Counted from the first letter of the stretch, positions 12,313 through 44,985 are shown. The stretch: DNA of 64,000 nt from Trueperaceae bacterium (GCA_035703635.1 DASSXV010000044.1:37974-101973), one strand, 5' to 3'. Notes: generated by a model not told the origin, from the sequence alone. Program-made: numbers and translations.

Positions 12313-12467
12313 GTGACCCTCCTAGTATGTGGGGCTTAGCTTAGCAGTCTCTGGCCCCTGGCGGCCCCGAAGCAACCGGCTTACAGTGGTTGCCCGCACC
12401 TCTGGTACACTGTCACGTTTGGCGCTGGCCAAGAGCGCCGCGCTGCGAAGCGTGTTAGGGAGGAACC

Positions 12468-27653: not shown

Positions 27654-27759
27654 TGCCTGCGCCATGCGAGCGCACGACCTCACCGGGCATTAACCTGGCG
27701 CGGCGGGAGCGGATGGTATGCTCCCCCCAGCCTAGTAACCACCCAGAAGGAGTAAGACT

Positions 27760-29915: not shown

Positions 29916-30150
29916 TGGAGCGTGGACACCGGTGACGCTGCGTAAGTCTCCCACTTCCGCGAGTCTATCACCGCGGCACCGCGCAAGCTTTGTCCCGGCC
30001 TACACGCTATTCCAGCGGGACGAAAGCTGGTTCTGGCTCTCGAGGTCCGGGTGGTAAGCTTAGATCCCGGGCGCTGGCGGCCGCGGCGACCACCTGCGTG
30101 ACCGGGGGTACGGCGGCTAACAGGCAACGTGTTCGCCCGAAGGGAGCTAC

Positions 30151-35969: not shown

Positions 35970-36175
35970 GAATTCTTACCCCTTGAACTTGGTGAAGTGT
36001 TCCTTGCGCAGGTCGCTTCACGAGTCCTAGGCGCTTTAGGCCGGGAGTGTCCGAGTTTCCTCTCCGGTTGGGCGTCTGGTTCTCGCTTCGCTCACTGGGT
36101 TCCTGGGTTTCCTTGGCCGGTTCAAAAGGTAGCACCTCCTTCCAGTGCGGCCACGGACGACACAGGTCCAAGCGG

Positions 36176-36205
36176 ATTAGACCACGTGCCGCGACCACAT
36201 GTCAA
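36176..36205 (-). promoter_or_regulatory. Strong sigma-70 promoter of slpA
   Basis: On the minus strand: TTGACA (36205-36200), 18 nt, TGgTCTAAT (-10 at 36181-36176). Predicts a 5' UTR of about 200 nt. Confidence 0.6.
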
Positions 36206-41963: not shown

Positions 41964-43667
41964 TCATGTCTGGAACACCCCGAGGCGCATCTGGCCGGGC
42001 TCGGCATCTAGTGCGCACGCTTCGAGGGCGCGCACTAGCCTGTGGCGCAGTTCCGAAGGGAGGATAACCTCATCGACCCATAGCCGCGCGGCGCCGTAGC
42101 GGATGTTGAGCGCCTCGTCGTAGTCGGCACTGATGCGGGCGTGTAGCTCAGCTAGCGCCGCGTCATCCGGCTTCTCGCCCAAGCGCTCGAGCCTCGCTGC
42201 TTGAATGTCGAGAATCGTCTTGGCCGCCTGCTGGCCGCCCATGACGCTGAAGCGTGCGCTTGGCAGCGCGAAGATGAAGCGCGGCGCGTACGCCTTGCCG
42301 CTCATCGCGTAATGCCCCGCACCGTACGAGCCACCCAGGATGACGCTGATGCGCGGCACCACGCTGTTGCTCACCGCGCTGACTAGTTTGGCGCCGCGAC
42401 GGATTATCCCCTCTTGCTCGCTGTCGCGGCCAACCATGAAGCCGTTGACGTCGTGCAGGAACAAGATGGGTACGCCCGTCTGATTGCAGTCGAGGACGAA
42501 TCGGGCCGCTTTGTCGGCAGCGTCTGCATAGATCACGCCGCCTACTTCCAGCCGCCCGCCACGCTTGATCACGAGTTTCTGGTTAGCGACTATGCCTACT
42601 GGGTAACCGCCAAGGCGGCCCCATCCCGTCACCAATGTTGGGCCGTAATCGCGCTTGTACTCGTCAAGCTCTGACCCGTCTAGTAGTCGGGCAAGCACGT
42701 GGCGGACGTCGTACGTCTGGGTTCCACCGTCGACTGGGAGGATACCTTCGAGGTCGTCGTCACTCGCTAGCGGGGCAACGGGTGCCGTGCGGTGCCGGGC
42801 CCAAGGGGCCAGCGGCCGCTCCGCATACGTTGCGGCTAGACGACGCAGGCGGGCGATGGCGTGGTGGTCGTCTGGCTCCTTGAAATCCACGGTGCCAGCC
42901 AGTTCGGCGTGCATGGCGGCGCCGCCAAGCTCCTCGCTGCTGACTTCCTGGCCGATGGCCGCGCGCACCAGAGCCGGCCCCGCCAGGTAGAGGCCGGAAC
43001 CTTCCGTCATGACGAGGGTGTCGCACATGACCGGCAAGTACGCGCCCCCAGCCACGCAGTTTCCCATGATGGCGGCGAGCTGTGGGATGCCGTGCGCGCT
43101 CATGCGGGCGTTCAGGTAGAACACGCGCCCGAAGTCGTCCTGATCTGGGAAGATCTCGTCTTGTAAGGGTAGGTAAACACCCGCGGAGTCGACCAGGTAG
43201 ATGGTCGGTACGTGGTTCTCGAACGCTATCGTCTGCGCCCTTATGACCTTCTTCGCGGTGATCGGGTAGAACGCTCCCGCCTTGACGGTGGCGTCGTTCG
43301 CGATGATCATCCACGGTCGCCCGACAACTTGACCGATGCCGGTGACGACGCCACCCGCTGGGGCGCCGCCCTCCGCCTCGTACATGCTGGCGCCCGCGAA
43401 GATCATGAGCTCGTCGAACTCGCTGCCCTCGTCTGTCAGCTCCGCGATGCGCTCCCTGGCCGTCAAACGCTTCTTGGCGTGCTGCCTGGCAGCCGCCGCA
43501 GCGCCGCCGCCTAGTGCGATGGTGCGACGCTGCTCTTCCACGAGTTCGCGTTCGACCCGCCACGCGCGCTTATTGGGGTGAAACGGGGCTTCGCGCCTGC
43601 TCTCCAGCGGCACGCCCGCGCCGAGCCGCGCTAAGTCGTCAAGTGACTTGCGCTTGGCGGCGCTCAC
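41964..43667 (-). CDS. Acyl-CoA carboxylase carboxyltransferase (beta) subunit, methylcrotonyl-/propionyl-CoA type
   Basis: 567 aa, two crotonase-like CT halves. HAKKRLTARERIAELTDEGSEFDEL and IMGNCVAGGAYLP blocks. GTGA overlap with the upstream cupin gene. Confidence 0.85.
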   Translation of the reverse strand: MSAAKRKSLDDLARLGAGVPLESRREAPFHPNKRAWRVERELVEEQRRTIALGGGAAAAARQHAKKRLTARERIAELTDEGSEFDELMIFAGASMYEAEGGAPAGGVVTGIGQVVGRPWMIIANDATVKAGAFYPITAKKVIRAQTIAFENHVPTIYLVDSAGVYLPLQDEIFPDQDDFGRVFYLNARMSAHGIPQLAAIMGNCVAGGAYLPVMCDTLVMTEGSGLYLAGPALVRAAIGQEVSSEELGGAAMHAELAGTVDFKEPDDHHAIARLRRLAATYAERPLAPWARHRTAPVAPLASDDDLEGILPVDGGTQTYDVRHVLARLLDGSELDEYKRDYGPTLVTGWGRLGGYPVGIVANQKLVIKRGGRLEVGGVIYADAADKAARFVLDCNQTGVPILFLHDVNGFMVGRDSEQEGIIRRGAKLVSAVSNSVVPRISVILGGSYGAGHYAMSGKAYAPRFIFALPSARFSVMGGQQAAKTILDIQAARLERLGEKPDDAALAELHARISADYDEALNIRYGAARLWVDEVILPSELRHRLVRALEACALDAEPGQMRLGVFQT

Positions 43668-43972
43668 TTCGCTTGGGTCGCTAGCACCACCAACAGCCCA
43701 CCGCCAGCGTTCTCGAGGGCGTGATCCTCTCCCGCCTCAATGGAGAGCAACTTGCCTTTGCCCAACCTAAGGGTTGCGTCGTCTACCCGCACAAGCGCCT
43801 CCCCCTCCAACACCTGGTATACGACGCTTGCGCTGGCGCTCCGAACGTCCTCCGCCTGCCCCGCCTCGAAGCAGATGAGTTCGACGGTGAGTCCGTCCTG
43901 GCTGATCAACGGTCGCCGCTGGACGCCTACGAGTGAGAAGCGGCGTGCGTCGCTTATGGTTACGGTCTTCAC
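43664..43972 (-). CDS. Small cupin-domain protein
   Basis: 102 aa from GTG 43972 (GGGAGGA SD 5 nt upstream). Contains the single cupin barrel motif VYQVLEGEALV...G....I.AGEDHALEN. Confidence 0.65.
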   Translation of the reverse strand: MKTVTISDARRFSLVGVQRRPLISQDGLTVELICFEAGQAEDVRSASASVVYQVLEGEALVRVDDATLRLGKGKLLSIEAGEDHALENAGGGLLVVLATQAK

Positions 43973-44039
43973 GTTGTCCTCCCAAGGGTCGGTAGTGCGG
44001 AACGCTGTAAAGCAAGCGTACATCGCGGCCGCCGCCGCA

Positions 44040-44257
44040 TGTGGAAAAGAGCGCGAGGACTGTGGATAACCGCAGACGCTTGACACGGGCGCGCCGAACT
44101 TGGTATGTGACTCACCCCACACTCCCATATCGAGTAACACCGTCAGGGACGCAAGGACCGAGATTCTCCCGTCGCCATCGGACTGTCATGGAAGGGGCCC
44201 ATGGGTGGTGTCAGCTTGTCCACAACCCTGTGGAGAACTAGTCGGCTTTGTGGATAA
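44040..44257. promoter_or_regulatory. Cluster of five DnaA-box-like 9-mers (two perfect)
   Basis: TGTGGAAAA 44040-44048, TGTGGATAA 44061-44069, TTGTCCACA 44216-44224, TGTGGAGAA 44229-44237, TGTGGATAA 44249-44257. Consensus is TTATCCACA / TGTGGATAA. Confidence 0.65.
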
Positions 44258-44301: not shown

Positions 44302-44985
44302 TCACCGGTCCAACCACTGACGGTTAGAGGCGCCGCGCGCCGCTTCGACGAACGCGTATACGGCGGCGGCATCCTTGACACCAGGGCGCGCTTCCACCCC
44401 GCTCGCCACATCTACCGCGTAAGGCCGTAACGTCCTCACTGCCACCGCTACGTTGCCTACGTTCAGACCTCCAGCGAGTATCAACCGTGGGTTGCCTCGC
44501 CAGGCGGCCGCCGTTTCCCACTCGAACGCAACACCTGAACCTGGCCGCGGGGCATCGAGGAGGTACCCGTCAGCGGGGTAGGTGGCCATGCTCTCTGGCG
44601 TAACCGCCGGTGAGAACGCCACGGCGCGCACCACGCGGGCTTCGCGCCCGATCCGCTCGGCGTACTCTGCGCTCTCGTTGCCGTGGAGTTGCACTGCGTT
44701 CAAGCGCAGGACCTTAACTAGTTCAAGCACTTCTGCCAGATCGGCGTCGACGAACACCCCCACGCGCGTGATGAAAGGCCCGACAGCCGCCACCACCTCC
44801 GCCGCACCCTCGCGAGTGATCTGGCGTTTGGAGTCCGGGACGAATATCAACCCGATGGCGTCGGCCCCAGCGCGTTCCGCGACCTCGGCATCTTCAGGGC
44901 GCGTGATGCCACAGACCTTTATCCGTACGTAACTGCGTCCGGCCTGACCGACCATCCTGGCCTTCCGTGGCGGCAAGTTCATCAC
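44302..44985 (-). CDS. trpF: Phosphoribosylanthranilate isomerase
   Basis: IKVCGITRPEDA...GADAIGLIF...S.R.I and LAGGL blocks. Start overlaps the yraN stop. Confidence 0.88.
   Translation of the reverse strand: MMNLPPRKARMVGQAGRSYVRIKVCGITRPEDAEVAERAGADAIGLIFVPDSKRQITREGAAEVVAAVGPFITRVGVFVDADLAEVLELVKVLRLNAVQLHGNESAEYAERIGREARVVRAVAFSPAVTPESMATYPADGYLLDAPRPGSGVAFEWETAAAWRGNPRLILAGGLNVGNVAVAVRTLRPYAVDVASGVEARPGVKDAAAVYAFVEAARGASNRQWLDR

Follow-up and report, generated by a model that had tools for sequence, protein, structure and literature searches.

The window analysed here, a 64-kb stretch of DNA, belongs to a Trueperaceae-like member of the Deinococcota, since the nearest named homologues of its TrpF protein come from Trueperaceae, Truepera and Deinococcales MAGs. 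A minus-strand gene block comprises rplU, a gap at the expected place of rpmA, obg, an HD/YqeK phosphatase gene, an LCP transferase gene, rsfS, yraN and trpF. On the 3' side of the gap that carries the DnaA boxes, genes for a 102-aa Cupin_2 protein, an acyl-CoA carboxyltransferase, a BatA/VWA protein and RodA follow. The two genes bordering this gap lie where the original prediction had placed them: trpF (phosphoribosylanthranilate isomerase; 44302–44985, minus strand) is the usual upstream neighbour of the box module, and the Cupin_2 gene (43664–43972, minus strand) is its usual downstream neighbour. Public gene callers place the cupin start at ATG 44023 (119 aa), so that box E would fall within the reading frame; we place it at GTG 43972, based on the conserved N-terminus MKTVTISDAR, which is common even to a relative with 37% GC, and on the ribosome-binding site GGGAGG at 43978–43983. 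Additionally, in some Trueperaceae lineages an inserted Ppx/GppA phosphatase gene separates yraN from trpF (L093:1406–2932 and L218:2487–4001).

Five DnaA-box 9-mers occupy the gap, in the positions and orientations originally predicted. Together with the spacer between them, they form a module at 44040–44257 whose layout is common to every related lineage examined. In gene orientation, the first box past the trpF stop is box A (TTATCCACA, perfect; 44249–44257, minus strand), and box B (TTCTCCACA; 44229–44237, minus strand) starts 20 bp after it in the same orientation. Box C (TTGTCCACA; 44216–44224, plus strand) is inverted and converges with box B across a 4-bp spacer, forming the head-to-head pair TCCACA-accc-TGTGGA, and the two boxes together make a near-perfect 22-bp palindrome. 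At the other end of the module lie box D (TTATCCACA, perfect; 44061–44069, minus strand) and the co-oriented box E (TTTTCCACA; 44040–44048, minus strand), 21 bp from box D. Both the 20- and 21-bp distances between the starts of same-strand neighbours and the convergent pair are as they had first been read. DnaA of D. radiodurans binds TTATCCACA and TTTTCCACA in vitro (PMC7988490).

Throughout the 64 kb, matches to TTATCCACA with at most one mismatch are limited to these five, all inside 218 bp. Their number is not unusual for the window (5 vs 2.85 expected); the chance of five uniformly placed matches falling this close, however, is roughly 5 × (218/64000)^4, or about 7e-10 by our own arithmetic. 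Moreover, when the 329-bp gap was shuffled 20,000 times with its base composition kept (59.6% GC), no shuffle contained more than two matches. As had been argued, the cluster is hard to attribute to chance, and it is the clustering rather than the count that lies far beyond it.

To our sample, loci were admitted through the TrpF protein alone, without reference to the DNA motif, which makes it unbiased for the boxes; it holds ten lineages (the window species and L087, L089, L091, L093, L216, L217, L218, L219 and L220). With trpF 57–99% identical, and TrpF 57–90% identical in the nine lineages other than the window species, the module lies directly after trpF in all ten, and essentially all near-consensus boxes of each locus sit in the post-trpF gap. 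A metagenome scan with the pattern TCCACA-N14-TCCACA-N4-TGTGGADAA returned at least 120 loci, and among the matches listed are 22 further relatives of the window locus, flanked by trpF and/or the cupin gene and ranging from 37 to 75% GC. Because boxes A–C are demanded by the pattern, these 22 contigs serve as evidence for the other features only, and for boxes A–C the unbiased evidence is that of the ten protein-anchored lineages only.

Across 20 non-redundant loci, 91 boxes lie inside the modules vs 7 in the remaining 237 kb (19.4 vs 0.03 per kb), and all box deviations fall at position 3, giving TTnTCCACA. The layout in gene orientation is box A, N11, box B, N4, inverted box C, a spacer of 124–147 bp, box D, N11–12 and box E. 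Box C is opposed to boxes B and A in every lineage, and box E is missing in some lineages of 75% GC. The motifs are 0.80–1.0 identical, whereas the sequence between them is 0.34–0.42 identical; for box A, the mean pairwise identity is 0.95 (21 lineages). As a control, 79 trpF loci of other phyla showed no cluster of three boxes in 300 bp. Collectively, these results indicate that the module is very probably a real, selected and self-contained DnaA-box element.

The control set also includes a Thermaceae MAG (L001:4841–4926) with four boxes immediately past the trpF stop, in a layout and orientation unlike those of the Trueperaceae module. These boxes are of the TGTGGATAA type, three of them in tandem at a pitch of 11–12 bp, and are followed by AT-rich DNA and a gene that, as read by eye, is phenylacetate-CoA-ligase-like. 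The same MAG gave the best TrpF match in the scan of genome contigs (48% identity), which returned no close relative. The association of boxes with trpF in this MAG suggests an old link within the Deinococcota.

The spacer between boxes C and D carries two conserved elements. Its central palindrome, CGTCAGGGACG (44141–44151; family consensus CGTCCWGGACG), is the presumed site of a dimeric or architectural protein; its identity is 0.80 vs about 0.37 in its flanks, and it is degenerate in L217 and imperfect in the window. The second element is a promoter-like motif on the plus strand (44080–44109), consisting of TTGACA (44080–44085), N15 and TGG-TATGTG (44101–44109), that is directed at boxes C, B and A and at the trpF 3' end. 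Across lineages, this motif reads CTTGACA-N15-TGGTA(g)G on the strand opposite the genes (the window copy has TGGTATGTG at 44101–44109), and its distance to box D is a constant 9–10 nt. The orphan promoter that had been noticed between the box pairs is a real conserved motif.

Compared with the sigma-70 form of a TTGACA −35, a 17±1-nt spacer and a TAnnnT −10, the promoter-like motif has a perfect −35, the extended TGG, the TA and an 18-nt spacer, but the final T is absent in every lineage; the hexamer never ends in T in about 21 lineages, AT-rich ones included. A consensus promoter/terminator scan of the gap found nothing, and for promoters this is due to the −10 without its final T. The native promoters of the window use a TGGTAnnnT grammar, with which the module motif agrees except at the last base of the hexamer, and this extended −10 is apparently the house style of the window organism. 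Promoter-like sites of this type occur at 36100–36200, 12400–12420, 27720–27735 and 30055–30070 of the window, upstream of an S-layer (SLH) gene, uvrA, minD and hpf; the site of the S-layer gene reads TTGACA-N15-TGG-TCTAAT. Furthermore, the lineage of L195, L216 and L219 has lost the −35 of the module motif through an 11-bp deletion and has kept the boxes and the palindrome.

The length of the spacer is restricted to a few values. Boxes C and D are separated by 124, 134–135, 143 or 146–147 bp and by no other distance; the arm from box C to the palindrome centre measures 58–59 or 68–69 bp, and that from the palindrome centre to box D measures 65 or 75–78 bp. The arms change by about 10–12 bp, which is about one helical turn and not a multiple of 3, in about three independent indel events. 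Since the spacer steps by helical turns and not by multiples of 3, the constraint appears to act on DNA rather than on RNA or protein. This phasing points to a nucleoprotein complex in which the triad of boxes A–C, the palindrome site and the tandem pair of boxes D and E would keep their relative helical faces.

RNAalifold applied to the putative transcript in 19 lineages yielded no conserved fold (−0.44 kcal/mol, with only three pairs, all within the palindrome). Neither Rfam, at permissive thresholds and on the window gap plus three relatives, nor ARAGORN reported anything in the gap, and small ORFs on either spacer strand are not conserved; the length classes differ by 11 bp. A plus-strand match to Rfam P13, a Pseudomonas sRNA, at 44594–44663 lies inside trpF and was dismissed as chance (30 bits vs a gathering score of 70). 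A candidate ECF-type promoter in gene orientation, GGGAn-N14-CGTCC, was likewise rejected, because its spacing is not ECF-like and it is better explained as the palindrome region. As a regulon motif in the window, the palindrome is uninformative, since matches with at most two mismatches are common in GC-rich coding DNA. No degenerate extra DnaA boxes with an 11-bp periodicity were seen in the spacer on reading the aligned sequences. The IHF consensus is absent from the module, and no IHF is known from the Deinococcota.

The module survives both the loss of the cupin gene and the replacement of trpF, which indicates that it is autonomous and does not depend on either neighbour for its maintenance. 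In L217, a 3.79-Mb contig without the cupin gene, five perfect boxes lie where trpF and dinB converge, between their 3' ends, and a gene start adjoins the module on neither side. In L117, no cupin gene precedes glyA and the module is intact. About 600 bp of non-coding DNA separate the module from glyA in this contig; this stretch, about 350–800 nt past box A on its downstream side, includes a short tandem repeat, one frame of which encodes YGNTQ repeats. In L150 (37% GC), a divergent lysS stands in place of trpF, and the cupin and carboxyltransferase genes are kept.

The window offers little that would make the module an origin of replication. It had been described as not a textbook oriC in a window lacking dnaA, dnaN and parAB, and our searches agree: tblastn with two DnaA proteins as queries found no dnaA in the 64 kb, dnaN was not found there either, and the sole ParA-like ATPase is MinD. 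The module contains no AT-rich unwinding element (DUE); the high-GC lineages showed no AT-rich stretch, and in them the lowest-GC 20-mers lie mostly on or beside the boxes. No DnaA-trio periodicity was seen on reading the sequences, and no GC skew switch occurs at the module in the window. A co-directional gene block from 37.7 to 50.2 kb, rplU–obg included, runs through the module without a change of strand; in the window and in L216 and L217, rplU-rpmA-obg-...-trpF and cupin-...-rodA are co-directional across it (rpmA is not called in the window). The few boxes, the lack of a DUE and of dnaA/dnaN, and the flanking genes running straight through together indicate that the module is not an origin.

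The triad of boxes A–C also occurs outside this module. Among the triad loci listed, dnaA lies in the fetched DNA of 27 of 127, none of them of Deinococcota type. Chloroflexi-like contigs have the triad about 400 bp upstream of dnaA, and contigs of 25% GC have it upstream of dnaA-dnaN; this position next to dnaA in other phyla makes it look like a general DnaA anchoring unit. In the Chloroflexi-like contigs (L100, L160, L104, L116, L125, L163 and others; GC about 0.6), boxes lie at 0, +20, +33(−) and +121, and the triad abuts TTGACA, downstream of scpB and upstream of dnaA. The interval between this triad and dnaA contains very highly conserved non-coding blocks, for example CACTACCCCTATACGAAGC, GTATAAGCAATCGTAATAGAAAAG and TTGAAAA-N-ATGGAGTATGATCA, and the region is probably the oriC/dnaA promoter region of that lineage. 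In L145, L168 and L180 (GC about 0.40), the triad and extra boxes lie about 220 bp upstream of an HtrA-like serine protease gene, as read from the sequence, and may form an origin-proximal DnaA-box cluster of a Firmicutes-type organism. Additionally, L099, L101, L113, L115, L177, L187, L207 and others (GC about 0.62; many from human-gut samples) have five boxes in 55 bp, at −10, +11, +20, +33(−) and +45(−), with flanks of about 0.9 kb and 1.6 kb without long ORFs.

Several readings of the module other than DnaA control need to be weighed. That it is the chromosomal origin, or a secondary or relic one, is very improbable, even though its DnaA boxes are clustered and of high affinity, the identical triad adjoins dnaA in other phyla, and origins away from dnaA exist in some bacteria. 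The oriCI of D. radiodurans uses the same box words, TTATCCACA and TTTTCCACA, bound by drDnaA; however, its 13 boxes in about 500 bp, AT-rich clusters, 46% GC and location in the dnaA-dnaN region (PMC7988490) have no counterpart in a module of 4–5 boxes in 220 bp. An origin here would also make the ribosomal-protein operon face the replication fork head-on, and a relic would not keep an identity of 0.92–0.95; together with the missing DUE and skew switch, this disfavours the relic or secondary origin suggested earlier. DnaA control of the cupin operon was also suggested earlier; the boxes would then serve DnaA as operators of this operon (cupin plus carboxyltransferase/BatA) and link a metabolic function to the replication state. 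The cupin gene does follow the module in most lineages, including L150 without trpF, and its protein is unusually conserved (59% identity between organisms of 37% and 66% GC). The operon appears to have a promoter of its own outside the module, with a putative −10, TACGCT, at 44015–44020 on the minus strand; a TAnnnT motif (TACGCT, TAGGAT) is conserved 25–45 nt before the cupin start. As box E of the window overlaps the −35 position of this putative promoter, local gene regulation is possible in the window species. In contrast, boxes D/E lie anywhere between 19 and more than 100 nt from the cupin −10, depending on the lineage, the modules of L217 and L117 stay intact without the cupin gene, and the content of the operon varies, with pccB present in some lineages and absent in others. 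Moreover, operators for the cupin operon would leave the triad 190–260 bp upstream, the phased spacer and the palindrome unexplained. As a conserved role, DnaA control of the cupin/carboxylase operon is therefore disfavoured, and we rate it as improbable.

The promoter-like motif raises the further prospect that a DnaA-controlled transcription unit, with TTGACA-N15-TGGTA on the plus strand of the window as its promoter, is the real output. DnaA at boxes D and E, just upstream of the −35, would activate or repress it, and DnaA at the triad, about 100 nt downstream, would block or attenuate transcription. Such a unit would yield a non-coding or antisense RNA that extends into trpF from its 3' end or, alternatively, would work through convergent transcription as such, shielding the cupin operon from read-through. 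In most lineages the −35 and TGGTA hardly vary and keep their fixed distance from box D, a degree of conservation that could mean that a transcript is the real product; the grammar agrees with that of the native promoters, and in L150 the motif points at lysS and could be a true mRNA promoter there. However, the missing T at the end of the −10, the lineage that deleted its −35 while keeping boxes and palindrome, the downstream RNA without conserved structure, ORF or terminator, and a spacer that varies by helical turns, a constraint on DNA rather than RNA, all speak against such a unit, and we regard it as an unlikely explanation. Still harder to credit is that the 9-mers serve as sites for some other factor instead of DnaA, such as a dimeric regulator recognising the inverted repeat. 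Boxes B and C would suit such a protein, but A, D and E occur singly, each as one copy of the shared 9-mer without a palindrome, and all variation is confined to position 3 of TTnTCCACA. Furthermore, unrelated phyla have this triad alongside dnaA and origin-like regions with multiple boxes, and a DnaA from the Deinococcota, that of D. radiodurans, binds these exact words.

Among the alternatives offered by the original prediction, an autonomous locus resembling datA or DARS is the best fit, the module being independent of both neighbouring genes. By analogy with such loci, its conserved role may be that of a phased DnaA complex that affects the availability or activity of DnaA and not a gene next to the module, a proposal that we hold with moderate confidence. 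From the boxes, their conservation, their geometry and their independence from the flanking genes, we infer DnaA binding, looping and an effect on initiation. On this proposal of DnaA control, a cis-element of about 220 bp would assemble DnaA away from oriC in Trueperaceae-like Deinococcota. One anchor would be the three high-affinity boxes, in which a tandem pair two helical turns apart faces the third box across 4 bp, and the other would be the tandem boxes D and E. The spacer, constrained in length and not in sequence, would carry the palindrome as the presumed architectural-protein site together with an RNA-polymerase-like site, and would hold the three parts on fixed helical faces to give a looped or bent DnaA complex. 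The output would be control of DnaA itself, as for E. coli datA/DARS and the B. subtilis and S. coelicolor clusters, and could consist of DnaA titration or of a change in DnaA nucleotide state. The complex could possibly be cleared or timed by transcription that starts at the internal site or reads through from the upstream block of rplU to trpF.

A more specific version, which we advance only tentatively, is that the module is the functional counterpart of DARS/datA in the Deinococcota, in which an architectural protein bound to the palindrome would unite the triad and the tandem pair and switch the nucleotide state of DnaA. If this were true, control of the DnaA cycle by chromosomal cis-elements would be ancient and widespread rather than an enterobacterial speciality, and the '-> N11 -> N4 <-' triad would be suggested as a general DnaA-assembly unit. 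The Deinococcota are polyploid, and their control of initiation is poorly understood. To our knowledge, control of initiation by non-origin DnaA sites is known in detail only from E. coli (datA, DARS1/2), and in outline from B. subtilis and Streptomyces. We found no description of such an element in the Deinococcota in the literature, in line with the earlier statement that nothing of this kind has been described for the lineage. The module thus provides a short, precise and deeply conserved target, with mutational predictions for the boxes, the triad spacing, the spacer phase, the palindrome and the promoter-like site. Moreover, the palindrome points to a DNA-binding protein partner yet to be named, and the recurrence of an identical triad beside dnaA in other phyla suggests that DnaA anchoring may follow a general rule.

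Compared with known DnaA loci, the module shows the general features of a non-oriC DnaA-box cluster: at least three consensus or near-consensus boxes, clustered in non-coding DNA that is remote from dnaA/oriC and much denser there than in the background. Such clusters in B. subtilis (six DBCs) and S. coelicolor restrain initiation, and some regulate their neighbours (PMC3245932, PMC5742627). Like the module, they have consensus boxes and are intergenic and outside oriC; in contrast, a fixed two-anchor geometry, a central palindrome or quantisation in helical turns has not been reported for them, and their conservation does not reach a comparable phylogenetic depth. In DnaA-regulated promoters, such as those of dnaA autoregulation and of P. 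aeruginosa gidA/oriCII, boxes lie immediately upstream of the −35, as they do in the module, whose promoter-like site, however, in most lineages has no gene that it could drive and is without the T at −7.

In DARS2 and in datA, the E. coli locus for hydrolysis of DnaA-bound ATP, box clusters surround a site for a DNA-bending protein at optimised spacing, and datA lies between or downstream of convergent transcription units, with read-through transcription regulating it (PMC5742627, PMC10950094). Similar to the module, datA is about 200 bp long, has high-affinity boxes mostly in one direction and lies downstream of transcription units; the boxes of datA stand on both sides of the bending-protein site, with intervals that are functionally optimised. 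In the module, two box groups lie around a conserved palindrome, with arms quantised in helical turns. The differences are that this central site is not an IHF site, that the module has an internal promoter-like motif, and that the essential boxes of datA are all co-directional, whereas boxes A, B, D and E of the module are co-directional and the conserved box C is inverted.

In topology, the triad agrees with the DnaA-reactivating sequences, DARS. The module shares neither sequence nor synteny homology with the enterobacterial DARS loci (uvrB-bioD and mutH region), and the genomic context differs. DARS2 adds accessory-protein sites at conserved spacing; unlike DARS2, the module has no IHF/Fis consensus and has a different palindrome instead. 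The second tandem box pair, 124–147 bp away, is a feature of the module and not of DARS. Reading the sequences of E. coli DARS1 and DARS2 directly, we found I(+)-N5-II(−)-N3-III(−) in both, where the module has C(+)-N4-B(−)-N11-A(−). The spacer of the facing pair is accordingly 4 bp in the module vs 5 bp in DARS, and the third box starts 20 bp from its neighbour vs 12 bp, so that it stands two turns away rather than one and the spacing of the module departs from that of DARS. In DARS, the opposed pair of boxes I and II is proposed to form a head-to-head DnaA dimer from which ADP is released (PMC6868365). The I-N5-II-N3-III spacing has been proposed to suit such a head-to-head AAA+ dimer together with a head-to-tail neighbour. 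Like the module, DARS is non-coding, intergenic and away from oriC, and both have a three-box core in which one box faces the other two. In both, the facing pair is convergent, as TTATCCACn-N5-TGTGGATAA in E. coli DARS and TTCTCCACA-N4-TGTGGACAA in the module.
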